The notes under the pieces were generated by a model. The model saw only the letters and a list, made by a program, of their open reading frames with translations, was not told where the DNA came from and searched no databases. Of a stretch of DNA of 64,000 nt, positions 713 to 60,931 are shown one piece after another (the first letter of the stretch is position 1; each line of letters starts with the position of its first letter). Both the position numbers and the translations under genes were made by a program. Source of the DNA: a bacterium (lineage in GTDB: Bacteria; Patescibacteriota; Minisyncoccia; Phycocordibacterales; UBA9973); contig JAKAKW010000011.1 in assembly GCA_021824345.1 (NCBI GenBank), positions 9,074-73,073 of the forward strand, written 5' to 3'.

Positions 713-1540
713 ATGAAAGCTCTTATAACTATTACGTTTTTTATTTTCCTGATGGCTGAAGTATCAGCTCAGGAAAAGTGGGAAATAATCAATTATGGAA
801 TTCCCATAATTGATTATCCGAATTGTACGGTATCGTACAATTCTGACGGGTCAGTATCGTTTAAGACATATTTGACCACTCCTGATCCACCACTAGATCC
901 AAAGCTGGTGGTTTACTGGAAGTCCACTCTTACAGTTCCAACAACTGTAAGAAACTTAATCTCTGGCAACTTCTCCTTGTTGGGAGATAGTACATTATTG
1001 GGAGTCCAGATCGGGTTTGGAATATCCCATGACGGAGAAAATTGGGCGTTTGTTTTTGGAACAAGCAAAGGAGATACAATGTTCCCCGGACAAAGCACAT
1101 ACTTGACGTGGGATATGACTAATCTCACTAAATATGGCGTCTCGTTGGATAGTGTGAAGGCGATAACAATCATTATCCAGTTGTTGACATCAAAGCCCGA
1201 ATATACTTGGGCGACAGTCAAGATGTGGAATTTGGGATATTCTAGTGTGACTGGAATAAAAAATCCTCACAAGAGGGAGGATTTTCAACTGAGTCAGAAT
1301 TTTCCTAATCCATTCAATCCGACAACTACGATACAATACCAGTTGCCCAAAGCTGGTAATGTAACTATAAGGGTTTATGATATTTTGGGCAATGAAGTAG
1401 CAACACTTGTTAATGGAGAAAAGCCTGCCGGCGTTTACGAAACGAAATTCAACGCTAGCAATCTTTCTTCCGGTCTGTACATCTACCAGCTCAAGGCTGG
1501 AAATTTTATGCAGACAAAAAAGATGATGCTATTGAAATAA
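713..1540 (+). CDS. Secreted protein with a T9SS-type C-terminal sorting domain (Por_Secre_tail-like)
   Basis: N-terminal signal peptide MKALITITFFIFLMAEVSAQE. The C-terminal ~80 aa FQLSQNFPNPFNPTTTIQYQLPKAGNVTIRVYDILGNEVATLVNGEKPAGVYETKFNASNLSSGLYIYQLKAGNFMQTKKMMLLK is a near-textbook T9SS CTD (NPFNP..T.I.F.LP....V.L.VYD..GR.V..L........G.Y....D.S.L.SGVYFY.L.AG.F..TKKM.LLK). RBS aaaggag precedes the ATG. The gene and its flanks are markedly AT-richer than neighbours. Confidence 0.8.
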   Translation: MKALITITFFIFLMAEVSAQEKWEIINYGIPIIDYPNCTVSYNSDGSVSFKTYLTTPDPPLDPKLVVYWKSTLTVPTTVRNLISGNFSLLGDSTLLGVQIGFGISHDGENWAFVFGTSKGDTMFPGQSTYLTWDMTNLTKYGVSLDSVKAITIIIQLLTSKPEYTWATVKMWNLGYSSVTGIKNPHKREDFQLSQNFPNPFNPTTTIQYQLPKAGNVTIRVYDILGNEVATLVNGEKPAGVYETKFNASNLSSGLYIYQLKAGNFMQTKKMMLLK

Positions 1541-1646: not shown

Positions 1647-1771
1647 AACCGTTTTTTATAAATATGGGGTTTTCCACACGCAAATGGCGTATTTTTAATG
1701 CTTATAAAGGTATAATAAAGACTATTAATGGAAAAGAAAGACAAACAACCTGTCTAAATCAAACTATATTT

Positions 1772-38213: not shown

Positions 38214-40415
38214 TTAACCGCCCGCCTGTTCCGAGAACTTTTTTCGGATATCCTTCAAAATCTGGCCCGCGATTTTCGGATTTTCTTTCAAAAATGTCCG
38301 AGTGGAATCGTAGCCCCGTCCGAGCTTCACTTCCTCTTCGCCATCCGGCTTGCCCGCCTGCCCGGTTGGCTTGTATGAATACGAACTGCCGGACTTTTCC
38401 AAGATCTTAAACTTTTCTCCGAGGGCGATGAGTTCGCCTTCTTTGGAGATGCCTTCGTTATAAATGATGTCGAATTCCGTCTGCTTGAACGGCGCGGCTA
38501 CTTTGTTTTTTACCACTTTCACTCGTGTTCGCGATCCCACCACTTCTTCTCCTTTCTTTATTTGGGCGATGCGCCGGATGTCCATTCGAACACTTGTGTA
38601 AAACTTAAGAGCCTTGCCTCCGGGCGTTGTTTCCGGCGAGTTGCTGACCAGGCAGCCATCCGCAAAATAATTGTGGTTATCAGCGACGCTTATATCAAAT
38701 CTTTGCCGGCTTATCCTCTGGCCATCATGGTACGGCGTACGGGTTCTGATTTCTTTTATTATCATCGGGCGCAATATCTGGCTTTGCTTTGATTGTTGAG
38801 GATCCGTCTGATGATAGCGCCCGCGGTATTTTTCAGGAAGCTTGTATTCCATGGACTTAGGAACGAAAGGGGATATCAGTTCAAAGAATTTATCCGACTC
38901 TGCGGCACTAAAACCCAGCACTTGATATTCTCCGCATTTCCTCCATTTGGGCGCAATATCATAGCGGGCGAATATCCGGTTGATTCTGTCAACGCTCTCC
39001 GGCTGATTTCCGAAGGCGTTGGCGTACAGCCCGGCTCTCGGCCGCCGCGCGTACCATTTTCCTTTCCATTCTGAAAGTCCGGTCTGCATTGTTCCGTCTC
39101 CGCAGTACCATAAAGCTATCATGCGAGGAGTAATTTGCTCCACCAAAAACTCCGGCACGATCTTTTTTTGTTGCGGATAAAACAGTCCGTGTAGGTCTCC
39201 GATGCGCAGAAGATGTTTGGTTTCCACAATGGCATTTCCCCTAGAATTTTCCATTACGACATTGCTGGCGATATCGCCCAATTCCTCTGCGAGCCATGAC
39301 ACGTATTGGGATTGTTCTGCTCCATGTTCCTCCCTGAAATATGCGGTTTGTTCGTTAAATTTCTTAATGTTTCCATCTCCCAGCAAAGAGCCGATGATAA
39401 TCTCCTCTTGTTCCGGGGAGAGGTCTATATTATTTATATTCACTGATATCTCATCTCCGGCTTTCAGTTCCTTGGCCTTTTTCCAGCCAGCCGGCGTATA
39501 TATTTTGTGGTCGGGAGTGCAGGAAAATCCTCTTCGTCCGTTTCCCGTATGGTTTTGAACAAAAAACTGCAAGAATGAATCCGTTTCTCCGTTTATGTGC
39601 CAGTCAGTTATGAACTTTGCTTCTACGCATTTCTTTTCAAAATTATAAGAAAGCACCTTCACTTTTTTAGTTTGATTGACAATTTTCCCGATTTTTTCTT
39701 TCGTTCCGTCGGCCAGCAGCACTTTCGTATCGTAGGAAAAACATCCGAACATCACCCCGATCTGCATTCTGATTTGGTTTATGAAAATCACTACGGTCTT
39801 GCTTCGCGCCACGATTGCCGTGAGCTTGCGCAGAGCTTGGGACATAAGCCGGGCCTGCTTGCCCACATGATATGCTCCCATATCTCCCTCGATTTCATCT
39901 TTTGGAGTAAGGGCTGCCACCGAGTCCACCACCACCACGTCAATCTTGCCGGTGCGCACAAGCGATTCCACTATTTCCAGCGCCTGTTCTCCGGTATCCG
40001 GCTGGGAAATCAGGAGTTCGTTTATGTTGACGCCGAGACGTTTGGAATATTCCGGATCCATGGCATGCTCCGCGTCAATGTACGCGCATATTCCGCCTTT
40101 CTTTTGCGCCTCCGCCACTATATGCAGGGACAGGGTAGTCTTCCCGCTGGACTCCGGGCCGAAAATTTCGATAATCCTTCCGCGGGGAATGCCTCCGACC
40201 CCCAAGGCCATATCCAGGCCGATTGAGCCCGTGGGTATTACGTTCACATCCACCTTCGGGGTATCCCCGAATTTCATAATAGTGCCTTCGCCAAACTTGG
40301 TCTGCAGGGCTTTCAGGGTGTCTTCCAATCCTGAAGCGTTTCCGCCTTTTCCGGCGGAACCCTTTTTTTCTTCACTTATTTCCTTCTGGGGGTCGGTTTT
40401 TGTTTTTTTAGGCAT
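38214..40415 (-). CDS. recA: Recombinase RecA interrupted by a 368-aa intein
   Basis: N-extein has Walker [10 protein letters not shown] and ...[11 protein letters not shown]-extein resumes [23 protein letters not shown].... Between them is a Cys1...VSN intein with LAGLIDADG motifs. Confidence 0.9.
38640..39743 (-). mobile_element. RecA intein with LAGLIDADG homing-endonuclease domain
   Basis: Starts [14 protein letters not shown] (block A, Cys1), ends [11 protein letters not shown]|S (terminal Asn, +1 Ser). Internal [11 protein letters not shown] and [18 protein letters not shown] motifs. 1104 nt = 368 codons, in frame, at the MFG|SPETT site. Confidence 0.85.
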
Positions 40416-44657: not shown

Positions 44658-46823
44658 ATGAGTAATTTATCAAAATCAAAAGTCCTCTTGGGATTGGCGA
44701 TCGCGGTTGCAGTTCTTGTTGTCGGAGGTACCTTCGTCAGCGCTGCTTACACCCAGACTGTCACTCTTAAGCAGGGCATGACCAGCCCTCAAGTTTTGAG
44801 CCTTCAACAGACTCTTAACGCCAATGGCTATCTGATCGCCACCACCGGCGCGGGATCTCCTGGAATGGAGACCTCTTACTTTGGTTCTAAGACCAAGTCC
44901 GCTGTTATGGCTTTCCAGACCGCTAAGGGCCTGACTGCAGACGGAGTTGTCGGTCCTCAGACCGGCGCCGCTTTGGCTGCTTTGACTGGAACCACGTCTT
45001 CCTCCGGACTTCCGGCTGGATGCACCTCTGCCACCGGTTATAGCGCCACCACGGGCCAGCCTTGCACTTCCACTTCCAGTTCTTCGACTCTTCCGGCCGG
45101 TTGTACTTCAACCTCCGGTTACAGTCCTACCACTGGCGTAAAGTGCGACAGCACCACGTCTACGACTCTTCCGGCCGGTTGTACTTCAACCTCCGGTTAC
45201 AGTTCTACGACCGGTGCGAAGTGTGATGGAACTTCAACCCCCACCACTACTTCCGGAACCAGCGGTTATCTGTCCAATATAGTCAATGATTCTGCCAATC
45301 GTGTTTCCACGGTGTACGAATCTCAGACTGATCAAGTAGTGGGCGGATTCCAGGCTACGGCCAGCTTGGCTGACCAGACGGTGACCCGCGTTCGTGTTAC
45401 TTTCAATAACACTGACACCGTGTCTTCCGCTGACCTTGCTAAGTACATTTCCAGCGCTTCTCTGTGGTACGGTTCTACCAAGATCGCGACCATGCCTGTT
45501 TCTCAGGCTGACCGCTCCAATGCCGATGTCTTTACTTTTAACTTCACCGGCTTGAGCGCGAAGATCCCTGCGGAGCAGATCGGACACTTCTACGTTTCCG
45601 TTAGCGCCAATGGTTCAATTGACACCAACGACACTTCTGCCGCTTGGACGGTTAAGTTCGTGGCTTCTGGCGTGAGCGCTACGTCTCCTGATGGAACTTA
45701 CGACACTTATCCTTCTTCTGACCTTACCGCTCAGACCAGCCTTGGATTCGGCAAATTTGCCGCTCAGGGCGTAAAGGCTACTGTCAACCTGTCTTCCAGC
45801 AATCCTGCTGCCAGTTCAGTTGCAGTATCCAGCTCGGCTTCCACCACGGATGTCCCGCTGTTGGCCTTCACCATTCAGGCGACCAACTCTGATCTGACCT
45901 TGAGAAAGGTTCCGATCCAGGTTGTGGCCAGCGCGGACGGAGTAGGAAAGATCATCAGCACCTTGAAGCTGTATAAGGATGGAACAGTAGTTGATTCCGT
46001 TGACGCCACCAGTGGCGAGTACACTGTTACCAGCGGAGCCATCACTTCCACCAATGCAGCCAGCGCTACTGCTACCACTGCGGGTTACTTCTTCAGCAAC
46101 ATTTCGTCTCCTTACAACGTAATCAAGGCCGGTACTACCGCCGAATTCGTCATTAAGGCTGACGTTAAGTCTCAGAGCAGTAACTACACCGCGGGCGATA
46201 CGCTTACCGCTTCCTTCACCAATGCTGACGCTATCACCACGAACTTCTCTGTTCTGGATGGCAGCGGCAATCAGCTTACCACCGGCTCCACCTATCGCGT
46301 AGGTTCGGCTGTGGGTAATGTTCAGACTCTTCTGATTAACGGCGTGAACGTTGTGATGGGTACGGCTACTATGAGTCAGCCTACTTACAGCGGAAGCGGT
46401 GCTACCAAGACCGCCAGCGCTTCCTGGACGATTCCGGTCACCGTGACCGCCTTCGGACAGACCTTGTATGTCGGTCAGACCGTTCAGTTGGCTTCTACCG
46501 CGACGGCTTCCAATGCCTTCGCAGTGACCTTCTTTGACGGAGCTACCCCGACTACGGCTGACACTACGTCTTCAGCTACCTTGTCTATGACCACTTCTGA
46601 TGCTACCTTGGAGAGCAATGGTTATCGTTTGGATAGCGGAACGGCTAAGCACTTCACTTTGACCGTGCTTATGACCGCTCCTGCTACCGCCGATCACCAG
46701 TATGGAGCATGGATTCAGCAGATTCGCACTTTCACCTCTTCCGATATCGGAACTGGTGCTGCGAACCAGAGCTTGGTTCCTGCAACTTCCTTCAAGACCG
46801 GCATTCAGAAAGTCCACAGCTAA
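44658..46823 (+). CDS. Thr/Ser/Ala-rich cell-surface (S-layer-like) protein with N-terminal peptidoglycan-binding domain
   Basis: Signal/TM (VLLGLAIAVAVLVVGGTF), PG_binding_1-like domain (LKQGMTSPQVLSLQQTLNANGYL...MAFQTAKGLTADGVVGPQTGAAL), three ~26-aa LPAGCTS.SGYS.TTG..C repeats, then about 520 aa beta-rich and extremely T/S/A-rich. Strong terminator downstream; biased codon usage suggests high expression. Confidence 0.8.
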   Translation: MSNLSKSKVLLGLAIAVAVLVVGGTFVSAAYTQTVTLKQGMTSPQVLSLQQTLNANGYLIATTGAGSPGMETSYFGSKTKSAVMAFQTAKGLTADGVVGPQTGAALAALTGTTSSSGLPAGCTSATGYSATTGQPCTSTSSSSTLPAGCTSTSGYSPTTGVKCDSTTSTTLPAGCTSTSGYSSTTGAKCDGTSTPTTTSGTSGYLSNIVNDSANRVSTVYESQTDQVVGGFQATASLADQTVTRVRVTFNNTDTVSSADLAKYISSASLWYGSTKIATMPVSQADRSNADVFTFNFTGLSAKIPAEQIGHFYVSVSANGSIDTNDTSAAWTVKFVASGVSATSPDGTYDTYPSSDLTAQTSLGFGKFAAQGVKATVNLSSSNPAASSVAVSSSASTTDVPLLAFTIQATNSDLTLRKVPIQVVASADGVGKIISTLKLYKDGTVVDSVDATSGEYTVTSGAITSTNAASATATTAGYFFSNISSPYNVIKAGTTAEFVIKADVKSQSSNYTAGDTLTASFTNADAITTNFSVLDGSGNQLTTGSTYRVGSAVGNVQTLLINGVNVVMGTATMSQPTYSGSGATKTASASWTIPVTVTAFGQTLYVGQTVQLASTATASNAFAVTFFDGATPTTADTTSSATLSMTTSDATLESNGYRLDSGTAKHFTLTVLMTAPATADHQYGAWIQQIRTFTSSDIGTGAANQSLVPATSFKTGIQKVHS
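45009..45236 (+). repeat. Three tandem 78-81-nt repeats (LPAGCTS[AT][ST]GYS.TTG..C units) in the surface-protein gene
   Basis: Units start at 45009, 45090, 45168 (cttccggc[ct]gg...), highly similar at DNA level. Confidence 0.7.
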
Positions 46824-46893: not shown

Positions 46894-46926
46894 GTGTTTC
46901 AACTGTTTTATTTGTATAATGTACGA

Positions 46927-48951
46927 ATGAATTTAAAAGACAAGGTTCTCAAATATGCCAGTTTCATTCTTGTACTCCTTATTCCCGTCGTATATTTCGG
47001 AGGAGCGGCATATCCGAGCATCGCGCCTAAGATTTTTTTCTTTTACGGAGCAGTTGAATTGATGGCCGCCTTTTGGATATATGCTTTACTCACCGATCCG
47101 GAGTATCGATTAACAAAGAAAACTCTCCTTTATTTTATCCCCATATTTGCCTTTGTGGCATGGATGACCGTTTCAGGCGTCATGGCGGTCAATCCGCGTT
47201 TGGCGTTCTGGGGTACCCTGGCTCGAGGAACCGGCCTTATTGTTCTTTATCACGCCTTCATTTTTTCCGTTATAATGGCGTCTCTGTTTAAGAAGTTCGG
47301 AAAGGAATATTTGTACAGGCTGATGAAATGGTTTGTGGCGGGAGGGTTTTTGCTTTCAATAACCATATGGTTTGGGGCGTCAGGTTTCAAATTGCCGTAT
47401 CAGTGGTCTCAAACCGACGGGGGAGGAGGATTGACCGGCAATTCGTCTCTTGCGGCCGCCTACCTTCTCTTTGCCATTGCTTTTGGAATAATTTTGTTGC
47501 TTTCACGCTCAGTTTCTAAGAAAGAGAAATGGCTTACTGTGGGCGCCCTTACTGTTACAATCTTTTCTCCTCTTTTTATAAACTTGGTTTTCTGGATGTT
47601 CTCCGGCCAAGGTTTGATGGGGAATGCCCGCGGAGCAACAATAGGGATGTTTTCCGGAGTGGCTGCAGCTCTTGTAATTTATGCTATTTTTTCCGGTAAA
47701 AAAACTTGGCGAGCAATTGGCATTATCCTTGTTATCGCAGGGATTGCCAGCTTTTCATATCTATGGAATCGGTTAGTTACGCCCGGCACCTCTCTTCATG
47801 AGACATTTGTCCAAGATGCTACTGGTACCCGTTTCATATTTTGGAATGTGGGAAGCGAAGTTTTACAGGATAGTCCATGGTTTGGCTACGGGCCTGAAAA
47901 TTACATGATTGCTTTCCAAAGGCATTTTGATTACCGAATGCTTGAGGCAAAATATAACCATGAGGTATGGAACGATCGGGCCCATAACATCTATTATCAG
48001 ACCGGAACGGATGGCGGATATCCTGCCATTGTTTTATACGCGCTGTTTCTGGCAGGCATTCTATTTGCATTGTATAAAGCATACAAAAAAGAACGCCTGA
48101 GTCTGAAAGAGGCGTGCATCCTTGCCGGCTTGATCGTCGGATATGTTATCCAAAATTTGGTTTATTTCGATTCCACCATATCACTCATGGCTCTTTTCCT
48201 TGTGGCAGGAACAGCATACGGATTTCAATTTGACACCGCAAAACAAAATGAGGAAGTGTGGAAACTAAAGTCTATTCCAATCCAAAAGATCACATCCGTT
48301 ATCATCTTCATATTTTTTGCCCTTGCTTTCATTGTTTTCGCCTGGAATCCTTTTATGAAAGACATAGCGTATGTAAACGCCTTTGAACATCCGTCCGAAC
48401 AATCCTTCAAAGCCCTTGAAGACGGATCTTCCATTGGGGAAGATTGGGATGTCAGCGGATTTGCCAATGATATGTATAAGTTCTATGCTTCCCATTCCTT
48501 GTCCATAAAAAGCGACAAAGCCAGAAATGAACGTGCTATTCAAAGTATTTCATACACCCTTAACTATCTTGAATGGCTGGCTCCGAGAGAGCCGTATGAT
48601 TTTCGCCTTTATGCGAGCATGGTACTTCTATACAATACCAGGACTTTCCTTTCAAATGCTTCATATGATTCCGCGCAAGCGGAACACTTGCTTGCGCTTC
48701 TGGCTCATGCGGAAAAGCTGTCTCCCGGGGACCCAGAGATGTATTGGAATGAGGCCCAGATAATGGCCTGGAAGGGCGATTTGCAAGCTGCGGCAAACGC
48801 GTATGAAAAGGCGATAGAGGTTGCGCCAAAATTGTCCGTATCGCATGAACTGCTCATTAAGTTCGCACGGGCTCTGGGCGACAAAAATCTGTATAACTTT
48901 GCGGTAGATCAGGCAAAAAAGTATGTTCCCAATTTTGTAATTCCCAATTAG
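46927..48951 (+). CDS. Wzy_C (O-antigen ligase/polymerase superfamily) membrane protein with C-terminal TPR-like domain
   Basis: Multi-TM protein with the Wzy_C signature region ...WNDRAHNIYYQTGTDGGYPAIVLY... and a periplasmic C-terminal TPR-like region. Start placed at ATG 46927 (MNLKD...) because the ATG at 46894 abuts the upstream terminator and a TATAAT lies at 46913-18. Confidence 0.8.
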   Translation: MNLKDKVLKYASFILVLLIPVVYFGGAAYPSIAPKIFFFYGAVELMAAFWIYALLTDPEYRLTKKTLLYFIPIFAFVAWMTVSGVMAVNPRLAFWGTLARGTGLIVLYHAFIFSVIMASLFKKFGKEYLYRLMKWFVAGGFLLSITIWFGASGFKLPYQWSQTDGGGGLTGNSSLAAAYLLFAIAFGIILLLSRSVSKKEKWLTVGALTVTIFSPLFINLVFWMFSGQGLMGNARGATIGMFSGVAAALVIYAIFSGKKTWRAIGIILVIAGIASFSYLWNRLVTPGTSLHETFVQDATGTRFIFWNVGSEVLQDSPWFGYGPENYMIAFQRHFDYRMLEAKYNHEVWNDRAHNIYYQTGTDGGYPAIVLYALFLAGILFALYKAYKKERLSLKEACILAGLIVGYVIQNLVYFDSTISLMALFLVAGTAYGFQFDTAKQNEEVWKLKSIPIQKITSVIIFIFFALAFIVFAWNPFMKDIAYVNAFEHPSEQSFKALEDGSSIGEDWDVSGFANDMYKFYASHSLSIKSDKARNERAIQSISYTLNYLEWLAPREPYDFRLYASMVLLYNTRTFLSNASYDSAQAEHLLALLAHAEKLSPGDPEMYWNEAQIMAWKGDLQAAANAYEKAIEVAPKLSVSHELLIKFARALGDKNLYNFAVDQAKKYVPNFVIPN

Positions 48952-52072: not shown

Positions 52073-53007
52073 TCATGGAAAAGAACTCCAAAATATACGT
52101 TGCCGGACATACCGGACTTGTCGGTTCGGCGATTGTACGAGAACTTAAAAAACAGGGATATGAGAATCTAATATTTAGGACTAGCAAAGAGCTAGACTTG
52201 CGCTCGCAATCAGACACCTTAGATTTTTTTAAGAAAGAACAGCCCGAGTATGTCTTTCTTGCCGCCGCCAAAGTTGGCGGTATAGGGGCAAATGATAAAT
52301 ATTCGGCGGATTTCATTAGGGACAACCTAGAGATAGAAGACAACGTAATTGACGGCAGCCACCAAGGGGGAGCAAAGAAACTGCTTTTTTTGGGCAGTTC
52401 ATGTATATATCCAAAGCTTGCTCCCCAGCCTTTAAAAGAAGAATACTTGCTCACCGGTCCGCTTGAAGAGACAAATAAAGCGTATGCGGTAGCAAAAATA
52501 GCCGGAATCACCATGTGCCAGATGTATGATAAACAGTATGGCACGAATTTTATTAGCGCCATGCCTACTAATTTGTATGGTCCCGGGGACAATTTTGATC
52601 TTGAAACTTCGCATGTTCTGCCCGCGATGATTCGGAAGTTTCATGAAGCAAAAGAAAGCGGGGCTAAAGAAGTGACACTGTGGGGCACGGGCAATCCTAA
52701 ACGAGAATTTCTGCATGTGGATGACTTGGCAAGCGCATGCGTTTTCCTTATGGAAAAGTACGATAGTCCGGAGATAATAAACGTGGGAACAGGGGAAGAT
52801 GTTTCAATAATGGAGCTGGCAGACAAAGTAAAAAAAATAATAGGGTGTTCCGGTAAAATTGTATGGGATTCAGACAAGCCCGACGGAACGCCGCGTAAGC
52901 TGCTGGATACTTCAAAAATCAATGCTCTCGGCTGGAGACCGTTAATTTCCATGGACGAAGGTATAAAATCTACATACGAGTGGTTTTTGGATAAATATGG
53001 AAAATAA
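52069..53007 (+). CDS. fcl: GDP-L-fucose synthase (GDP-4-keto-6-deoxymannose 3,5-epimerase/4-reductase)
   Basis: [15 protein letters not shown].., [14 protein letters not shown]. 4-nt overlap with gmd. Confidence 0.9.
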
Positions 53008-55015
53008 ATATGACATTGTAATAGTCGGCGCCGGAATTTCCGGCGCTACTCTGGCAGAGCGGTACGCTTCTTTAGGAAAAAAAGTGCTGGTGATAGAATC
53101 TCGGGACCATATCGGAGGAAACTGTTACGATTTCATTAATGAAGACGGAATCTTGGTGGCAAAATACGGGCCGCACTATTTTCATACGAATTATGAAGAC
53201 GTGTGGAGATATGTGAACCGTTTTTCTGAATGGGTCCCTTTTGAGGCTCGAGCCGTCAGTCATATTGACGGGAAAAAGGTTTCTTTACCCATAAACATAA
53301 AGACAATAAATCAGGTCTTTGGCTTGGAGATTAAAGAAAAAGAAGAAATGGAGAAGTGGGTAAAAGAAAATACTGAACCAAAAAGGCACCCCAGAAATTC
53401 TGAAGATGCGGCAATAGGCCGGGTAGGCAAAATCCTATATGAAAAGGTATTCAAGGAGTACACTCGAAAACAATGGGATAAGGATCCCAAGGAGCTTGAC
53501 CCTGAAGTGACAAACAGGATACCGATTCGCCTAAACGATGACGACAGGTATTTTACCGATGTCCATCAAGCCATACCAAGGGAAGGATACGCCAAGCTTT
53601 TTAAAAATATGTTAAGCAATGAAAATATAGAAGTTCGCCTCAATACCAAGTGGGAAGATGAAAAAGACAGGATTACTTACCGGGAGAAACTTTTTTTTAC
53701 GGGGAGGATTGATTCATATTTTAAAAAGAAATTCGGCCTGTTGGAATATCGCTCGCTTAAGTTTGAGTTTGAGACTTTTAACCGCGAATATTTTCAGGAA
53801 TACGTGCAGGAGAATTACCCGTCACTTAAAGTTCCCTTTACCCGAATTGTTGAATACAAGCATATGACCGGTCAGAAACATCCAAAAACGACCGTTTCCC
53901 GCGAATATCCTACTTGGGAGGGGGAGCCGTATTATCCGGTTCCTTCGACAAAAAACAGGAAGATATACGTAAAATATCAGCATGAGGCGAAAAGGTTGGA
54001 GAAGAAAAACATTTATTTTGTCGGCCGACTGGCCAATTACAAATACTTTAATATGGATCAGGCGTTCAAGAACGCCCTGGATTTGTTCTATAGGCTGGAA
54101 GGAAAGAAAGAACGCGGATCGGGGATGACGGTAAGACTCGCCGGGGGAATGGGAAACCAGATGTTTCAATACGCACTTGGCCGGAAGCTTTCAATAAAAA
54201 ACAACGTACCCTTGTATCTTGATTTGACGTTTTTAAATCACAGAGTCAAACTACCGGAGTTTTTGCGCCCTCATTTCGTTTTTCATGATTTGAAACTTGA
54301 TGTGTTTAATATCAAGGCTGACATCGCGAATCCCGCCCAAATTGGTTTTTGGAACCGTCCCTTTTTATCTGGAAAGATCATGATATTGATTGACGCGATT
54401 TTGCGCAAGCTCGCGCTCTTCCCAGGATGGGAAAAGTCATTTTCTTTTAACAAGAAAATCCTTGATTTAGGTCCTGGCACGTACCTGGAGGGATATTGGC
54501 AAAGCGAAAAATATTTCAAGGATATAAGCGAAACGCTTCGGAAAGATTTTTCCTTGAAAGCGCCCTTGTCCGGCAAGGCAGCGGAACTTTATAAAGAAAT
54601 AAGAAACTGCGCGTCCTTATGTATATTTGTGCGCAGGAAAGACATGGCAGATAAATCTTTTCACGGCACCGTGCCCATTGAGTATTACCGTGCCGGCATA
54701 GAATACATAAAGAAGCGTCAACCTATTGAAAAAATATACGTGTTTTCAGATGACAATGAATGGTGCCGGCAGAATCTGAAGTTTGAATATCCCACCTTGA
54801 TCGCCGAAAAGGAATGTTCCGGCAAGAAATGGGAAGGGCATCTTATTTTAATGAGTGCGGGCCGGAATTTCATAATCGCCAACAGTACTTTTTCCTGGTG
54901 GTCGGCATGGCTTTCAGATAACCCGAACAAGATAGTCGTTGCCCCTAAACAATGGTTTGGGAACAATAGGCTGGACGATTCCGATTTAATACCCGAAAGC
55001 TGGGTAAGATTATAA
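52997..55015 (+). CDS. Fusion ORF: UDP-galactopyranose mutase (N-terminal ~375 aa) plus GT11 alpha-1,2-fucosyltransferase (C-terminal ~295 aa)
   Basis: N-terminal [18 protein letters not shown]...[15 protein letters not shown] (Glf FAD-binding) through ...[12 protein letters not shown]. The C-terminal part begins at the internal Met of [18 protein letters not shown] (GT11 motif I) and contains VRRKD, YVFSDD and [12 protein letters not shown] motifs. Continuous frame with no stop. 11-nt overlap with fcl. Confidence 0.75.
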
Positions 55016-55090: not shown

Positions 55091-55930
55091 ATGGCAAAAA
55101 AGAAACTCCGCATAGGATTTATCGGACAAGGATATATCGGGAAGAATTATGCGGATGATTTTGAACGCAGAGGATATAAAGTTACCCGATATTCAAAAGA
55201 GCGTCCTTATATCAAAAACAAAGAAGAAATCAAAGAGTGCGACGTAATATTCATAGCGGTTCCGACCCCTACGCGCCACGGATCCTTTTATGACGGAGTA
55301 TTGAGAGAAGTTATTCCTCTGGCCGGCCGAAATAAGGTTGTGGTCATCAAGTCCACTGTGAGCCCAGGCCTCACCCGCATCTTGCAAAATAAATTCAAAG
55401 ACCGCCTCATTATTCACAGTCCTGAATTTTTGAGCGAGGATACCGCCGCCAATGATGCAAGCAATCCTTTTTTTAATATTGTCGGTATAAAAAAGAATTC
55501 CCGAAAGCATAAAAAGGCGGCCTCGCTCCTTCTAACCATACTTCCTCCTTCTCCGTTTTTCTCCATAGTTTCATACGAAGAAGCCGAGCTCATAAAATAT
55601 ATTCATAATTCTATGGCCTTTACCCAAATTGTTTTTTTTAATCTTATGTATGATTTGGCCCTAAAATTTGGCGCCGATTGGGCCAATATCAACAGAGCCA
55701 TAAAAGCGGATCCGTTAATACCCAACAGGTACTCCGAACCTGTGCATAAGAGCGGAAGGGGTGCGGGCGGGCATTGTTTCATAAAGGATTTTGCAGTCAT
55801 ATCCCAGGCCTATGAAAAAGCAGTAAAGGATCCAAAAGGAATTGATGTATTGAAAAGCCTGGAAATAAAAAACATAGATCTTCTTAGAAAGAGCAAGAAG
55901 GATCTTGAATTGCTTCGTGAGATTTATTAA
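55091..55930 (+). CDS. UDP-glucose/GDP-mannose dehydrogenase-family protein, short (279 aa; C-terminal UDP-binding domain missing)
   Basis: IGFIGQGYIG (NAD-binding), VIFIAVPTPT, VVIKSTVSPG, IIHSPEFLSED, GAGGHCFIKD (catalytic Cys), as in Ugd; the ORF ends about 50 aa after the catalytic Cys. Confidence 0.55.
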   Translation: MAKKKLRIGFIGQGYIGKNYADDFERRGYKVTRYSKERPYIKNKEEIKECDVIFIAVPTPTRHGSFYDGVLREVIPLAGRNKVVVIKSTVSPGLTRILQNKFKDRLIIHSPEFLSEDTAANDASNPFFNIVGIKKNSRKHKKAASLLLTILPPSPFFSIVSYEEAELIKYIHNSMAFTQIVFFNLMYDLALKFGADWANINRAIKADPLIPNRYSEPVHKSGRGAGGHCFIKDFAVISQAYEKAVKDPKGIDVLKSLEIKNIDLLRKSKKDLELLREIY

Positions 55931-55939
55931 ATTTCCTAT

Positions 55940-56860
55940 ATGAAAAAAAACGCGGTTTCAGAAAAAATTTCGGCGGTTGTGGTAACGCATAATAGAAAAG
56001 AACTCTTAAGGAATTGTTTGAATGGAATTTTGCGGCAAACTGTCCCTGTCAACCATATCTTTATAATTGACAACGATTCTAAAGATGGTACGGAGGATAT
56101 GATCCGGGACAAATTTGGAGATAATCAGCTTGTAGAATATAGAAATCTCGGTAAAAATACCGGAAGCGCCGGTGGCTTTCATGAGGGTGTGAAGATGGCC
56201 TACGAGCGTGGATCGGAATGGATCTGGCTTATGGATGATGACGTAACACCTCGCCCTGATTGTCTGGAAAAAATGAAAAGCTACGGGCATATATCAAAAT
56301 GTATCAATGCAAACAAAGTTGATCCATCAAACAAGGAATATGAGTTCATGTTTGAAGTTATATTTGATCCTTCAATATGCAGAATGACTTTTATGAATAA
56401 TATCTCCTTTAAAAACGGCAAAGATTTTGCTTTTGTCAATGTCGGATGTTTTGAGGGAATGCTTATTCACCGAGATATTGTTGCCCAAATAGGTTTTCCT
56501 GACAAGCGATTTTTCATTTATAGCGATGATACCACTTATGGATTTATCGCTTCTCTGTATACAAATGTTATTTTTGTGAGAGATGCGTATTTTGATAAAA
56601 AAGTTTCCTTTAAAAATACTGCCACGCCGATTTTTTCATATTACGCGATTCGAAACCAATTCTTACTTAAGGAATACCTAAAGAAATACGGCATTTATAA
56701 TGCGCGCCTGTTTTATCTTGGAATAGCATTATTCGCCGGTCTGGCTGCCACCAAGCAGGCGGTTAGAAGCAGAGACATCAAGATACCATGGTATGTTCTT
56801 CGGGGATTATTTGACGGCTTAAGGGGAAAGTTTTATCAGATTGGGACACACAGAAAATGA
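55940..56860 (+). CDS. Family 2 glycosyltransferase
   Basis: ISAVVVTHNRKELL...IFIIDNDSKDGT (DxD) ...WIWLMDDD, GT-A fold GT2 motifs. Confidence 0.8.
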   Translation: MKKNAVSEKISAVVVTHNRKELLRNCLNGILRQTVPVNHIFIIDNDSKDGTEDMIRDKFGDNQLVEYRNLGKNTGSAGGFHEGVKMAYERGSEWIWLMDDDVTPRPDCLEKMKSYGHISKCINANKVDPSNKEYEFMFEVIFDPSICRMTFMNNISFKNGKDFAFVNVGCFEGMLIHRDIVAQIGFPDKRFFIYSDDTTYGFIASLYTNVIFVRDAYFDKKVSFKNTATPIFSYYAIRNQFLLKEYLKKYGIYNARLFYLGIALFAGLAATKQAVRSRDIKIPWYVLRGLFDGLRGKFYQIGTHRK

Positions 56861-59019
56861 ATCTTTCCTGGGAAAAGATAAACAAGGGACTTTTACTTCT
56901 TGGACTTGTTGCCCTGCTATATAGGGAAGGGAACTTTGCCGGCACGTTTATACCAAAGCCCTTTGAAATAATATTTGTGATCTTGTGTGTTTCCACAGCT
57001 CTTTTCATGTTAAAGGGCTCAAAAATGAAGGATTTTTTCGCATCAATACCGAGAAAAATATTAATTGCCGTATGTGTAATGTTGGGGTCAGTATTTCTGG
57101 GATGGATTTCGGCTTCATTGTCCGGCATGAAGCCCAATTTCAATATGATTTTGGAGCTAGGAACTTTTTTAATCGGAATTGGCATTTTTCTTTTGATTCT
57201 TTTTTATGCTCAGGGGAACAAAGCGTATGCGCGATATTGCTTATATGCCATGCTGGTTCCGGCGATATATGCTTTTTTTATTTTCCTGTATCCCGGCACA
57301 TATCTTGGCATAAATTTAAAAATACATTTCCTGGGTTTTACGATAAATCCGAATACCATTTCAAAGATCTTATTGATCCCGGCAATGTTTTTTGTTTCTT
57401 ATTCATTATTCGAGCATCGGAACAAATGGATAAAGGCTCTGTATATTTTCTTGTCCGCTTCCATGGTTTCTCTAATATTCTGGACGGGGTCAAGAGGGTC
57501 TTTGGTAAGCCTTATAATAGGAATGGGTTTCATTTTAGTCGTATACATATTTCATGAATTCACCTGGAAAAAAATCTTCTTCGGTTCCGGAGTAATCTTA
57601 GCTATACTTATTTTGGGTCAGGGGATGTTGCCCATAGATCGACAGGAGGCATTCGTGCACAGAGTGGTCCTCACTTTTATTCATCAGCCGAATATAGTTT
57701 CCACCTTGCGAGAATATACTACTGGGGTAGTTATATATCAGAATAAAGAGGAAGAATTGGAAGGAACGATTGACATAAAACTCGTTGAGCCTAGGCTCAT
57801 TGCGTGGCCGTTCTATTTGAAATATGTGCTTCTTCATCCCCTTGGCATAGGTCCGGATACGCACAAAGATTTCGGACTTGTAGATAAAAAAGGCAATCCA
57901 ATAAATTCAGGTCCTCATAACACCTATCTTGAAATATGGCTGTGGGGAGGCATACTAGGCATCCTAAGTTTCATATACTTATTGTATTGCGCTTTTAAAA
58001 ACTTAACGGAAAGGATCAAATCTTCCTTCAGCCTGACAAATATTGCGCTACTGGCGATTCTTTTTGCTTTATCCGTATCTATTTTCTTTGATGACAGTCT
58101 TTCATTTTATTGGTTTTTCATAATCTTGGCGTTTGCCTTAATTGAAAAGGAGACTATTGCGGTCAGCATGCATATGGGAAAAGAAGAGCTAGATATTTTT
58201 GCAAAGCTGAGTTGGAACTTCAAAACGGTTTTTGATGTTGGTTCAAGAGACGATATTGATTATTTTAAGATAAAAAACGACTGCGAGTATCATTTGTTCG
58301 AACCTAATACGGAGGCTATTGCCTCAATAAAACGGAAAATTTCGAATTTAGGCGAGCACAATATAATTCTCAATGAATTCGGACTATCAGACGCCGACAA
58401 AGACAACTGCGTTTATTACAAGAACGTTCAGTCATTTATCCCGCATTGGAGTTTAGCCTCTTTTGACACTGGCGAACGTTTTTCTCTGCGTAAAATGGAT
58501 GATTATGTGGAAAATCACGGCATATCCTTCATTGATTTTCTGAAAATAGACGTTGAAGGAATGGATTATCAAGTAATACTCGGGGGCATAAATACTATTA
58601 AGCGGAACAACAAAGTATCTTTTATCCAGCTGGAATGTTCCGGTGGCAGCAGGCAATATATCGAGCTTCTGGATAATTTTGATTTTTACTTAATTATGGA
58701 TCCTAGTCTGCTGAAAGTGATCAATACTTTAAACAGAACAGGCATCGACTTCAACAAGCAATTGATCAAGATGGATGAGGATGTAATAATTTTTTTGGAT
58801 AAGACTATGGCTGAAACTGGCGCCGCGGCTTGTATTTTAGGAGTGAATAAAAACATTGATTTTTCTTTAATAATTCAAGAAAGAAAACTGGCATACAGCA
58901 TAGTTTCCGTGAACAAATCGTACAGTGGAATGGCTCTGGATTATTTTAAGATCTTATACGGTATCAAAAGGCGCTTGCGGAAAATAAGGAAGACGGTCAA
59001 AAATTTCCTCTTTACTTGA
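56857..59019 (+). CDS. Fusion ORF: Wzy_C (O-antigen ligase/polymerase-like) membrane domain plus C-terminal FkbM-family methyltransferase domain
   Basis: About 430 aa with 10 or more TM helices and the Wzy_C region (GSRGSLVSL...SGPHNTYLEIWLWGGILG). From about residue 440, FkbM-type MTase motifs (FDVGSRDDIDYF...FEPN......KIDVEGMDYQVILG). No stop between the two parts. Confidence 0.7.
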   Translation: MNLSWEKINKGLLLLGLVALLYREGNFAGTFIPKPFEIIFVILCVSTALFMLKGSKMKDFFASIPRKILIAVCVMLGSVFLGWISASLSGMKPNFNMILELGTFLIGIGIFLLILFYAQGNKAYARYCLYAMLVPAIYAFFIFLYPGTYLGINLKIHFLGFTINPNTISKILLIPAMFFVSYSLFEHRNKWIKALYIFLSASMVSLIFWTGSRGSLVSLIIGMGFILVVYIFHEFTWKKIFFGSGVILAILILGQGMLPIDRQEAFVHRVVLTFIHQPNIVSTLREYTTGVVIYQNKEEELEGTIDIKLVEPRLIAWPFYLKYVLLHPLGIGPDTHKDFGLVDKKGNPINSGPHNTYLEIWLWGGILGILSFIYLLYCAFKNLTERIKSSFSLTNIALLAILFALSVSIFFDDSLSFYWFFIILAFALIEKETIAVSMHMGKEELDIFAKLSWNFKTVFDVGSRDDIDYFKIKNDCEYHLFEPNTEAIASIKRKISNLGEHNIILNEFGLSDADKDNCVYYKNVQSFIPHWSLASFDTGERFSLRKMDDYVENHGISFIDFLKIDVEGMDYQVILGGINTIKRNNKVSFIQLECSGGSRQYIELLDNFDFYLIMDPSLLKVINTLNRTGIDFNKQLIKMDEDVIIFLDKTMAETGAAACILGVNKNIDFSLIIQERKLAYSIVSVNKSYSGMALDYFKILYGIKRRLRKIRKTVKNFLFT

Positions 59020-60931
59020 AAAGCTTCCGGTATTTATCCTTGTTTTTCAAAACGTAGTCCGGCAAATCTGATTCGTCGGTCCAGTATTTGAATTTTCGGC
59101 CTCGATAATCCACGTTTTTATTCACTCTATCTTCTAAAGTTTCCAGCCAGTCTGCATAGGCTGGGTGCCGCCATTCCGCCATTTTTCTTTTTGCTCCTTC
59201 CACTCCTCCCATAAATCCGAAATGCCATCCGCCATCGTTAACCTCGGCATATCTAGTCTTTTTTCTGGTACGCAGATCATTCAGGCAATTTTCTTTTATA
59301 GTTTTGTATTGAACGGCAATTGTCCCCGTCCAACCGTTTACTTCGTTACAACGATTGTTTAAATAGTAATAGTATGCAAGCTGCTTTGGGCGGATTATCT
59401 CGCTTTTTGAAAAATCGGTAAGCCCTTTTAATTTTATTGGGTTCCATATTTCATCCAAGTCGGACACAAATACCACGTCCGTGTCATTCAGATTAAGCTT
59501 CGCAAGTGCTTTTTTCGCGCTTTCTTTCTGATAGAATTCCCGTACCCAGTAATGCTCTCCGGCGCCTACGTTGCTGTTATTCTTTGCCATTTCAAACAAG
59601 GAAGTGTCTTTAGGAAAATCATTCACCACGTAATAGGTTATCTTGTCTTTCCATTTTGCGAACCGCTCCTTGTGTTTCTCGTATTGCAGTTCATGGGGCA
59701 TTCCGGAAAAAGTTTCCGTGCTCTCCACGATCACGAATTGGTCCACGTAATCGTTCAATATATTAAGCCTGATTTCCAGGAGATCAAGTTCATTGAGCAG
59801 ATAAAACAGGTCGTATACCTTGATCCTTTTCTTATATTCGTCCAGTTCTATTTTTGATACCCAGGCCTTTTGCCTGACTTTTTCTTTTTTCAGTTCAAGG
59901 GAAGTTCTTACGAAGTTTTTTGCGCTCTGCATCTTGTAAATCACCGCCCTGGCGGCCCTTCTGGCGCTTTTCGGAAGCAATTGTTTGGCTTTTGCCTTCA
60001 TGCCTTTTGGGGCCGGCATGAAAACGGGAGCCTGATTTTGATAATAATCTTTATGTCTTTCCATATACGCCTTCAGTTCCTTTAAGCATGTATCATAATC
60101 GTTGAGATTCCCTTCCCGGTCCAGGTAATTCCACCCTTTCGTAATGTTGTATCCCAGGCTCCAGTATCCGTCCGAAACGTTGTGCCTGCCCCAATATTTC
60201 GGTGCAATGCAGAATTTTAGACTCTCGCTAAGCCAGGCGGGAAACCAAGCGAAGCTGGAATTGGACATGATGAGATAATGGGCGTTTTTAACCACGACAT
60301 AATCCTTTGCAATACTGAAATGAAATACCCCGAAATCCGGGAAGAATTTTTTGGCTGTTGAAACATCTTCGGTAATTACAATGAATCGGAAATTCGGATT
60401 GATTTTTCGCATATGCCTTACGGCATCTTCCCAATATTCTTTTCTCAAAAAAAATTCCGGATGCCTGACATACTCTCCGCCCCGGAAATTTATGACGCAG
60501 GTGTTGTCATCGGCGTAGTCATAGCATTCATATTCTTCCTTCACCTGGAGCCATTTTTTTATTTCATCCTTTCGGTGAAAAATATATTGCTCGTCTTGCA
60601 TTAATCCGTCTATTTTTGTGCCATCTTTAATGTTTACCAGATTTTTGTCATATGTTCTGATGTCTGCTCCGGAAAATGGGTGGATGATTTTTCTTTCAGT
60701 GTAATAATACTGCATGCCTTCGGGCAAGGTTTTGGGCGGTCCGCCCTCCGGGCCTTTTCCGCCTGTCACCTTACATCCGAAATCAAGATTCATAAAATTT
60801 CCCGCCTTAAATTTTTCAGGGGATTTGATACCAAAATCATATCCATTATCTAAGGAAAAAACTCTCGTTGCCACATAGCAGGCAAGCTGGTTGCCCAGTC
60901 CTTGGCCGTTGTATAACTCTGTAATTATCAT
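59012..60931 (-). CDS. Two-domain glycosyltransferase: N-terminal GT11-like domain plus C-terminal GT17-like (MGAT3-type) domain
   Basis: N-terminal GQGLGNQLACYV, FRGGEYV, MSNSSFAWFPAWL mirror GT11 motifs I/II/IV. C-terminal FYLLNELDLLEIRLNILNDYVDQFVIVESTETFSG..., TDVVFVSDLDEIW, GGWHFGFMGG, PDYVLKNKDKY parallel Glyco_transf_17 blocks (NHEFDLLDVRF..VVDAFVVCESNFT, DDVFIIDDADEIP, GWHCSWCF, PKYLLKNYDRF, recalled from memory). Confidence 0.7.
   Translation of the reverse strand: MIITELYNGQGLGNQLACYVATRVFSLDNGYDFGIKSPEKFKAGNFMNLDFGCKVTGGKGPEGGPPKTLPEGMQYYYTERKIIHPFSGADIRTYDKNLVNIKDGTKIDGLMQDEQYIFHRKDEIKKWLQVKEEYECYDYADDNTCVINFRGGEYVRHPEFFLRKEYWEDAVRHMRKINPNFRFIVITEDVSTAKKFFPDFGVFHFSIAKDYVVVKNAHYLIMSNSSFAWFPAWLSESLKFCIAPKYWGRHNVSDGYWSLGYNITKGWNYLDREGNLNDYDTCLKELKAYMERHKDYYQNQAPVFMPAPKGMKAKAKQLLPKSARRAARAVIYKMQSAKNFVRTSLELKKEKVRQKAWVSKIELDEYKKRIKVYDLFYLLNELDLLEIRLNILNDYVDQFVIVESTETFSGMPHELQYEKHKERFAKWKDKITYYVVNDFPKDTSLFEMAKNNSNVGAGEHYWVREFYQKESAKKALAKLNLNDTDVVFVSDLDEIWNPIKLKGLTDFSKSEIIRPKQLAYYYYLNNRCNEVNGWTGTIAVQYKTIKENCLNDLRTRKKTRYAEVNDGGWHFGFMGGVEGAKRKMAEWRHPAYADWLETLEDRVNKNVDYRGRKFKYWTDESDLPDYVLKNKDKYRKLFK

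Follow-up and report, generated by a model that had tools for sequence, protein, structure and literature searches.

The window analyzed here (the whole 64,000-nt stretch of DNA) comes from a Paceibacteria/CPR bacterium, as indicated by the names of homologue matches. The locus in question has genes for GDP-Fuc, Galf, and dTDP-Rha, several glycosyltransferases (GTs), and two Wzy_C proteins; it also encodes, just beyond the edge of the window, a flippase (Wzx) and a phosphoglycosyl transferase (PGT) of the Bac_transf type. A Wzm/Wzt ABC transporter was found neither in the window nor in 10 kb of adjoining sequence. Judged by its gene content, this is a Wzx/Wzy-type surface-glycan locus, and it recurs in conserved form in other Paceibacteria. 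Here, we report on one of the two Wzy_C proteins (the second is longer), whose membrane domain runs on into an FkbM-family methyltransferase (MTase) (Table 1).

Table 1. Coordinates of the fused gene, its parts, and the adjoining genes within the window
Feature	Position	Strand	Basis or remark
Upstream GT2 glycosyltransferase	55940..56860	+	Stop overlaps ATG of fused ORF by 4 nt
Whole fused ORF, 720 aa + stop codon	56857..59019	+	Single uninterrupted reading frame, ATG start
WaaL-like 12-TM membrane domain, aa 1-429	56857..58143	+	Predicted N-in/C-in
Pfam Wzy_C core, aa 200-373	57454..57975	+	Pfam profile
Large extracytoplasmic loop TM9-TM10, aa 258-356	57628..57924	+	AlphaFold2 helix boundaries; holds R313, H336, H354
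Linker, aa 430-441, EKETIAVSMHMG	58144..58179	+	Former stop codon and intergenic spacer; junction alignment with L005
Former start codon of MTase gene, M438, now internal	58168..58170	+	Aligns with ATG of separate MTase gene in L005 and N-termini of stand-alone orthologues
FkbM-family SAM MTase domain, aa 442-683, predicted cytoplasmic	58180..58905	+	PF05050, TIGR01444, AlphaFold2 model
Basic amphipathic C-terminal helix, aa 684-720	58906..59016	+	AlphaFold2 helix H684-719
Convergent GT11-like + GT17 glycosyltransferase	59012..60931	-	Overlaps 3' end of fused ORF by 8 nt

The overlap between the GT2 and Wzy_C genes recurs in the locus of protein P0042, where the MTase gene directly follows the GT11-like/GT17 gene, and in locus L035 the GT11-like domain (63% identity) is fused to an MTase orthologue. 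By comparison of loci, the GT11-like/GT17 enzyme is the usual genomic partner of the MTase in other lineages. Next door in the same strain lies a second lineage-specific fusion, Glf+GT11, which is split in relatives. A promoter and terminator scan around the fused gene gave counts at or below chance and no hit at the junction. A Shine-Dalgarno-like motif precedes only 3/38 genes of the window, so that a check for one at M438 was uninformative.

A preliminary description of this DNA had reported a single ORF joining Wzy_C to an FkbM MTase. This was confirmed with Pfam and NCBIfam profile searches, which place both domains on one 720-aa ORF (PF04932 Wzy_C, aa 200-373, E 3.2e-14, 53.4 bits versus a cut-off of 31.7; PF05050 Methyltransf_21/FkbM, aa 460-598, E 3.4e-13, 50.5 bits versus 22.7; TIGR01444 fkbM_fam, 53.1 bits versus 37.7). 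The motifs quoted at the time (FDVGSRDD, KIDVEGMDYQVILG, and SMHMGKEE) are all found in the translation. One gene is present rather than two, as had been proposed; no stop codon interrupts the ORF, and a comparison of four loci showed no difference in their DNA.

The Wzy_C domain was modeled with AlphaFold2 and assigned by fold comparison to the WaaL-like (GT-C_B) fold, with a long outer TM9-TM10 loop. Its multi-TM nature had been described correctly, although the count of "10+" TM helices was too low (12 in the AlphaFold2 models). R213 (in the outer loop preceding the TM9-TM10 loop), R313, and H336 are invariant in 50/50 Wzy_C homologues. H354, within an H-N-X9-G-XX-G motif, is conserved in 44/50, with Asp in its place in 5. 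Every family-invariant residue is kept in the fused protein. In WaaL ligases, two conserved Arg bind the Und-PP phosphate and a conserved His activates the acceptor, all in outer loops (R191/R265/H313 of WaaL). The Arg/Arg/His pattern suggests ligation to an acceptor, and polymerization would be possible too. No solved Wzy polymerase was among the fold-search matches of the membrane domain. The domain scored 21 bits against the equivalog for WaaL sensu stricto (RfaL, NF012031; cut-off, 277), well short of that assignment, and neither domain gave a meaningful match when its profile was searched against PDB sequences. Its tie to WaaL comes from fold comparison only, not from a sequence profile.

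Topology was predicted by positive-inside counts (15 versus 6 for the query; 16.7 versus 5.3 for the family mean), with 50/50 homologues in agreement on N-in/C-in. The MTase is hence predicted to lie on the cytoplasmic side, not in the periplasm, with SAM on hand; this was the side that the earlier proposal of a functional fusion depended on. The prediction agrees with the experimental topology of WaaL, C-terminal GFP fusions of which were fluorescent and functional (PMC2932511). That the C terminus is cytoplasmic and tolerates cargo is further suggested by other members of the family that have independently acquired a C-terminal partner, a cytoplasmic GT2 in P0085 and P0155 and a class-I MTase-like domain in the case of P0174.

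The MTase domain was modeled with confidence as a Rossmann-type alternating beta/alpha fold (AlphaFold2) and matched many class-I SAM MTases in the PDB at probability 1.0. D460-V-G462, H479-x-F-E482, and K563-x-D565 are invariant across 45 MTase homologues, and all family-invariant residues are kept. Motif I (DVGSRDD) is a subfamily variant of the glycine-rich consensus and is conserved throughout the subfamily. The domain looks intact, and SAM-dependent methyl transfer is its putative activity. The C-terminal helix (36 aa; hydrophobic moment, up to 0.71; net positive charge) is a probable membrane-surface anchor, and the extension also occurs in the close stand-alone MTase orthologues shown in the alignment (P0090 and P0092). 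The five closest MTases were left out of the full-length model alignment (mixed MAFFT alignment grossly misaligned).

Between the domains lies a linker of 12 residues that is predicted to be disordered (pLDDT <50 at aa 433-440; junction peptide, ALIEKETIAVSMHMGK). The internal Met noted previously at the MTase start (SMHMGKEE) is M438, the counterpart in the alignment of the Met with which stand-alone MTase orthologues start. In the closest relative (L005; identity, 63% for Wzy_C and 70% for MTase), the orthologous genes lie side by side as two reading frames, parted by a stop codon and 19 nt. More generally, Wzy_C (432/435 aa) is a gene of its own in the closest relatives, with an FkbM gene, likewise separate, 14 to 19 nt downstream. 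At the junction in the window, the stop and spacer of L005 are replaced by in-frame codons, with a spacer shorter by 7 nt and many substitutions. The exact ancestral gene pair is documented by the L005 lineage only. The second-closest relative (L009) was considered as a further example and rejected; the FkbM gene next to its Wzy_C gene is not orthologous to the MTase of the window. None of about 88 Wzy_C and 60 MTase homologues joins the two domains, so the direction is fusion and not split. By these alignments, the fused ORF is a lineage-specific merger of two neighboring genes. Among the 22 loci from species-representative genomes, an orthologous MTase lies within 6 kb of Wzy_C in five and immediately downstream on the same strand in none (0/22), so the Wzy_C-MTase adjacency itself appears derived and local.

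When 1.84 billion representative proteins were scanned, none but the fusion protein matched both domains, and no second lineage appeared among 5.8e9 or 1.84e9 proteins. The MTase-only search did not list the fusion protein itself (P0001), which is not the representative of its own 50% cluster, and the absence of other fusions is on that account strong rather than absolute. Literature searches on O-antigen ligases with FkbM or Patescibacteria found no account of this architecture, and those on FkbM, O-methyl, and fucose found no useful precedent. The same Wzy_C family has nonetheless been fused independently at its C terminus, to GT2 (P0085 and P0155) and to a probable class-I MTase (P0174; 23.6 versus 27 bits, below the Pfam gathering score). 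A search with P0174 shows a singleton and found no clade of Wzy_C-MTase fusions around it.

The results above cover the ORF, its two domains and fold, how it arose from neighboring genes, its singleton status, its predicted topology, and the type of locus. From them we infer what the MTase would act on and which sugar it would methylate, what would accept the glycan, and that both domains would be active when fused. The ancestor carried a WaaL-like Wzy_C gene of about 435 aa, some 19 nt of spacer, and an FkbM MTase gene of about 283 aa; loss of the stop codon together with a net 7-nt shortening of the spacer put both genes in one frame. The product is probably a genuine bimodular membrane enzyme with sites on opposite faces, in which a cytoplasmic MTase tailors a lipid-linked glycan that is then transferred outside in WaaL-like fashion; we hold this reading with fair, though far from complete, confidence. 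TM12 on one side and the amphipathic C-terminal helix on the other would hold the MTase at the cytoplasmic face. There, with SAM, it would O-methylate a sugar of the undecaprenyl-diphosphate-linked oligosaccharide during assembly by the cytoplasmic GTs; its likeliest target is the residue that the GT11-like/GT17 enzyme attaches. Wzx would flip the finished unit, which the 12-TM WaaL-like domain would then transfer from Und-PP at the outer face. If CPR/Paceibacteria lack an outer membrane and LPS, as is generally held, a lipid A-core acceptor is impossible. The fusion most likely adds only co-localization and a fixed stoichiometry, with no new chemistry and no coupled termination-ligation. The MTase may also be translated separately from M438/M440.

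The reality of the fusion is the first point on which alternatives have to be weighed. The exact fused protein occurs on 15 contigs, including an NCBI MAG (GCA_027428375.1) and Logan assemblies made independently from three or more runs (SRR13241953, SRR13299515, and SRR17201078 among them), and the DNA is 100% identical to the window over 5 to 13 kb in 4/4 fetched loci (independent assemblies). With the same protein and DNA in several assemblies, a junction free of homopolymers and repeats, and a difference from the relative that consists of many substitutions and the 7-nt length change instead of a single-base indel, a single-read or single-assembly error behind the fused ORF appears very unlikely. 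Although the source of the window is metagenome assemblies, synteny is also continuous on both flanks, and we regard an artefact of sequencing, assembly, or binning, with the two genes really separate, as exceedingly improbable. A real fusion might still be a neutral or mildly harmful accident, a recent stop-loss without functional meaning that perhaps impaired one domain or left the MTase made mainly from M438. We consider this unlikely, while granting it a real chance. The fusion is a singleton carried by one strain, and all its copies are identical, a pattern that bears no mark of selection on the fused state; against an accident, both domains keep all invariant residues and fold confidently (AlphaFold2), and the topology fits the function. 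The ancestral ATG (M438) has been kept, although the sequence upstream of it is more GC-rich than typical start contexts of the genome. Before the fusion, the MTase came with a probable membrane-binding helix, so that tethering would alter little, and the neighboring Glf+GT11 fusion and singletons such as P0174 make sporadic fusion look habitual in compact loci; yet WaaL accepts cargo at its C terminus (PMC2932511), as do the GT2-fused relatives.

The preliminary description had gone further and proposed that chain termination is merged with ligation, the MTase capping the non-reducing end as in WbdD so that the fusion couples length control to ligation. Chain termination by a methyl cap is known from WbdD, this protein is among the weak generic MTase fold matches, and an orthologue of the MTase of the window (P0170, 46% identity) sits in a locus (L035) with a Wzt ABC-transporter ATPase bearing a weak Wzt_C carbohydrate-binding domain, the transporter type that recognizes capped termini. 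The locus in the window, however, has Wzx and a Bac_transf PGT without Wzm/Wzt. In Wzx/Wzy pathways, chain growth takes place at the outer face, which has no SAM, and a cytoplasmic MTase can modify the unit only before flipping. Since the membrane and the flipping step separate their sites, the MTase and the ligase cannot act on the same chain end at once. No kinase domain or coiled-coil ruler was detected (the domains are Wzy_C and FkbM), the MTase is FkbM-type and not WbdD-type, and its conserved genomic partner is a GT and not a ligase. The proposal of merged termination and ligation is thus unsupported, and we give WbdD-like capping only a slim chance. A further reading, which is slightly more plausible and still decidedly speculative, starts from the repeated, independent fusions at the WaaL-like C terminus, to the FkbM MTase in this strain, to GT2 (P0085/P0155), and to a class-I MTase-like domain (P0174). 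In Paceibacteria, the WaaL-like protein could be a trans-membrane scaffold for the last cytoplasmic tailoring steps. The fusions would then point to enzymes physically arranged as an assembly line, such that only finished (e.g., methyl-capped) glycan passes to the flippase and the ligase. The orthologue in the Wzt/Wzt_C locus would fit a capping role of this kind. If true, the arrangement would give a Wzx-dependent pathway a checkpoint for quality control, much as Wzt recognizes caps in ABC pathways.

On the favored reading of a two-sided bimodular enzyme, the protein would be the first pairing of a ligase-type domain with a methyltransferase. CPR bacteria, though generally considered to lack LPS, have kept WaaL-like proteins; as a Rosetta-stone fusion, this one offers a hint, open to testing, of a functional link between glycan methylation and glycan transfer in poorly understood CPR envelopes. 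The fusion is real, but it is a one-off variation on a known two-sided enzyme type. Its practical value is modest, as a single-strain event built from well-known domains that opens no long-standing question by itself.

Among known systems, WbdD of E. coli O8/O9a is an MTase/kinase chain terminator with a coiled-coil ruler that caps chains polymerized in the cytoplasm in the ABC-transporter pathway. Like the MTase of the window, it is a membrane-associated SAM MTase that acts at the cytoplasmic face on Und-PP-linked glycan and has a C-terminal amphipathic membrane-binding region (predicted in the window protein). It differs in its pathway, its kinase and ruler, its MTase family, and in not being fused to a ligase. 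The WaaL of Cupriavidus metallidurans (PDB 7TPG/7TPJ; CAZy GT121) shares about 10 to 17% identity with the membrane domain, and there was no HMM-level match of that domain to the WaaL PDB sequence. The uncharacterized Paceibacteria proteins P0085/P0155 and P0174 likewise combine the WaaL-like family of about 435 aa with a C-terminal cytoplasmic tailoring enzyme; their partner domains differ from FkbM, and the GT2 of P0085/P0155 is the gene normally immediately downstream. The closest precedent is Brucella WadA, a bimodular protein of a GT25 glycosyltransferase and a GT121 O-antigen ligase (PMC9938171, PMC10920833). The architecture had been described as not known to be characterized, which stands insofar as no literature or second protein was found, but a ligase with a cytoplasmic tailoring domain had already been characterized in WadA (PMC9938171). 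Pfam found no GT25 domain in the window protein, and the likeness is one of design, not of membership. WadA has its soluble domain at the N terminus, a glycosyltransferase that acts on the acceptor (lipid A-core), and is conserved across several genera, whereas the window protein, found in one strain of a CPR bacterium, has at its C terminus a SAM MTase that probably acts on the donor glycan. In both proteins, the O-antigen-ligase-type domain has 12 TM helices and shares its polypeptide with a soluble cytoplasmic enzyme that tailors glycan in the same pathway; the two catalytic sites lie across the membrane from each other and would be used before and after flipping.

The fusion is a single uninterrupted ORF in the ORF listing of the window; its ATG overlaps the stop of the upstream GT2 gene by 4 nt, and the convergent GT11-like/GT17 gene overlaps its 3′ end by 8 nt. 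Pfam detected Wzy_C (53.4 bits; cut-off, 31.7) and Methyltransf_21/FkbM (50.5 bits; cut-off, 22.7), and NCBIfam TIGR01444 concurred with the FkbM assignment; the coordinates, motifs, and domain calls of the preliminary description are therefore correct. The identical protein is recorded on 15 contigs (NCBI MAG GCA_027428375.1 and Logan assemblies, with the exact protein in at least SRR13241953, SRR13299515, and SRR17201078), the window is 100% identical to four compared loci across 5 to 13 kb, and sequence inspection found no homopolymer at the junction (58135-58180). Judged from the assemblies, an assembly or sequencing artefact is a very unlikely source, and the fusion, as originally observed, is a real feature.

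Features of the window and of the glycan locus that carries the fusion
Feature	Position	Strand	Length	Details
Por_Secre_tail (T9SS-type C-terminal sorting) protein	713-1540	+	275 aa	
Giant CARDB/FN3 surface protein	1664-7399	+	1911 aa	
Class-I aminoacyl-tRNA synthetase, IleRS-type	22399-26016	+	1205 aa	His_Phos_1, aa 539-699
RecA	38214-40415	-		
PG_binding_1 protein	44658-46823	+	721 aa	Glycan locus
Second, longer Wzy_C protein	46894-48951	+	685 aa	Glycan locus
GDP-mannose dehydratase/GDP-fucose synthase-type genes				Glycan locus
Glf fused to GT11	52997-55015	+		Glycan locus; Glf, UDP-galactopyranose mutase (TIGR00031, 367 bits); GT11 fucosyltransferase-type domain, aa 495-670
UDP-glucose/GDP-mannose dehydrogenase-like protein	55091-55930	+	279 aa	
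Wzy_C-FkbM fusion	56857-59019	+	720 aa	Glycan locus; Wzy_C, aa 200-373; Methyltransf_21/FkbM, aa 460-598
GT11-like/GT17 protein	59012-60931	-	639 aa	Glycan locus
GT2, RmlD-like gene, another GT2				Glycan locus

The Wzy_C half belongs to a conserved family of ~435 to 450 aa (88 matches, next best at 63% identity), with a methyltransferase (MTase) attached in none of the 88, and the 60 homologues of the MTase half (161 to 353 aa) are all stand-alone. In the closest relative (loci L005 to L008), a Wzy_C gene (432 aa) is followed after 19 nt by an FkbM gene (283 aa) with 70% identity to the C-terminal half of the fusion. The junction reads ...ALRERG-stop, 19 nt, ATG-SLEKEELDIF in this relative and ...ALIEKETIAVSMHMGKEELDIF in the window; the stretch from the last shared codon to the ATG is 27 nt in the window versus 34 nt in the relative, which indicates that the stop was lost and the frame restored, with M438, the internal Met at the MTase start, as the former start codon. 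In the second-closest relative (L009), Wzy_C is likewise followed by an FkbM gene, which is, however, not orthologous to the MTase of the fusion. Among 22 loci drawn from species-representative genomes, the orthologous MTase lay ≤6 kb away in 5 and directly downstream on the same strand in 0. The MTase gene follows a GT11-like/GT17 gene with a 4-nt overlap in the locus of homologue P0042, and on one contig the orthologue (P0170) is fused to a GT11-like domain. The Wzy_C-MTase adjacency is thus derived and local, and in one lineage the fusion went a step further.

GT11-like and GT17 domains are fused also in L005 and L009 and occur as two genes in L033; in L035 (2075-4006), a GT11-like domain (63% identity) is fused to the FkbM MTase orthologue, and GT17 is separate. 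The GT11-like, GT17, and FkbM MTase modules appear shuffled between lineages.

AlphaFold2 models were confident for the Wzy_C domain alone (pLDDT, 85.4; pTM, 0.88) and for the full-length fusion (pLDDT, 86.9), with 12 transmembrane (TM) helices, a TM9-TM10 loop of ~100 residues, a disordered linker (aa 433 to 440), a Rossmann-type methyltransferase, and a long C-terminal helix. Short loops hold 15 Lys+Arg on the predicted inside versus 6 outside, a bias with the same direction in 50/50 aligned homologues; the experimental map of Pseudomonas WaaL has 12 TM segments, a large loop between segments 9 and 10, and a cytoplasmic C terminus, with C-terminal GFP fusions both fluorescent and functional (PMC2932511). 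On this predicted topology, the MTase would be cytoplasmic, on the side with available SAM, and C-terminal cargo would be tolerated. In an alignment of 50 homologues, R213, R313, and H336 are invariant, and H354 (H-N-X9-G-XX-G motif) is His in 44 and Asp in 5; O-antigen ligases have a two-Arg-plus-His signature and related polymerases Asp/Glu (PMC10920833). The conserved Arg/Arg/His pattern of the Wzy_C half resembles the ligase signature; the domain may be a ligase or a polymerase.

The MTase half retains all residues invariant across 45 homologues (e.g., D460/G462, H-x-F-E482, and K-x-D565) and structurally matches class-I SAM methyltransferases by fold comparison. At its C terminus, 36 residues fold into a very basic helix of strong amphipathicity (hydrophobic moment, up to 0.71), an extension common to close stand-alone orthologues in the alignment (P0090 and P0092); the MTase was therefore probably membrane-peripheral already before fusion, which fits a lipid-linked substrate, and fusion would alter its location little.

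Homologues carry the names Nomurabacteria, Paceibacterota, or Minisyncoccia (Patescibacteria/CPR). The glycan locus starts at ~44.6 kb and extends beyond the window end, where the same contig (L034, 1-10000) encodes dTDP-rhamnose genes (RmlA/B/C/D-type, two dTDP_sugar_isom genes among them), a DUF3431 protein, a GT2, a Wzx flippase, and a Bac_transf phosphoglycosyl transferase. No ABC transporter was found in the window and adjoining 10 kb, and other Paceibacteria repeat the same plan; with its flippase and phosphoglycosyl transferase, the locus is therefore a Wzx/Wzy-type pathway. The second Wzy_C protein has only ~22% identity to the fused Wzy_C over 250 aa, and its pairing with PG_binding_1 is kept in other Paceibacteria loci (L033 and the P0042 locus); it may complete a polymerase/ligase pair or provide a link to peptidoglycan. 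GT11 is a separate gene (281 to 311 aa) in relatives (L005, L009, L033, and the P0042 locus); here it is joined in frame to Glf, starting at its own native-looking Met, and Glf-GT11 is a second lineage-specific fusion of the locus. The short dehydrogenase-like protein, also encoded in the locus, has N-terminal and central domains, without the C-terminal UDP-binding domain.

Elsewhere in the window, RecA is interrupted by an intein with a LAGLIDADG homing endonuclease (Pfam RecA, Intein_splicing, and LAGLIDADG_2), the IleRS-type synthetase contains a histidine-phosphatase domain (E, 3e-34) between its catalytic and anticodon-binding parts, and the Por_Secre_tail protein, unexpected for Patescibacteria, adjoins the giant surface protein. 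Start contexts are A/T-rich, with a Shine-Dalgarno-like motif 3 to 12 nt before the start in only 3/38 confident genes; gene overlaps of 4 to 8 nt are common, and searches of the 64 kb detected neither tRNA genes nor Rfam families.

When 1.84 billion cluster representatives were scanned exhaustively with phmmer, 2222 matched, and the best 150 of these (to ~61 bits) included no protein matching both halves; the fusion itself is not a cluster representative, and other fusions could hide inside clusters. The same Wzy_C family includes C-terminal fusions to GT2 (P0085 and P0155), the partner being the gene that normally overlaps the Wzy_C 3′ end, and a singleton (P0174) with a probable class-I methyltransferase below the Pfam cut-off. 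The Wzy_C-FkbM protein is a Rosetta-stone fusion specific to its lineage, and the compact glycan locus that encodes it has several fusions of this kind.

The evidence best supports a bimodular enzyme with two sites on opposite membrane faces serving different steps; we infer its substrate and acceptor, and that both halves are active. The MTase would O-methylate, in the cytoplasm, a sugar of the Und-PP-linked unit, probably, by gene association, the one that the GT11-like/GT17 enzyme adds; Wzx would then flip the unit, and the WaaL-like domain would transfer it at the outer face. Fusion would bring co-localisation and fixed stoichiometry. The preliminary description had proposed WbdD-like chain termination coupled to ligation. 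WbdD acts in a setting of cytoplasmic polymerisation and Wzm/Wzt export and carries kinase and ruler modules, whereas the fusion has neither module, lies in a Wzx-type locus, and has its sites split by the membrane, all of which speaks against that proposal. The MTase orthologue P0170 (L035) adjoins a Wzt ABC ATPase with a weak Wzt_C domain, a hint that leaves a capping role as a low-probability reading.

Among known systems, the bimodular fusion comes closest to WadA of Brucella, in which a cytoplasmic GT25 at the N terminus is joined to a 12-TM O-antigen ligase (PMC9938171). The design is common to both but the family is not, the partner domain here being a C-terminal FkbM methyltransferase instead of an N-terminal GT25. 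Unlike WadA, the fusion is limited to one strain and is hosted by a CPR bacterium, a group generally held to lack LPS.
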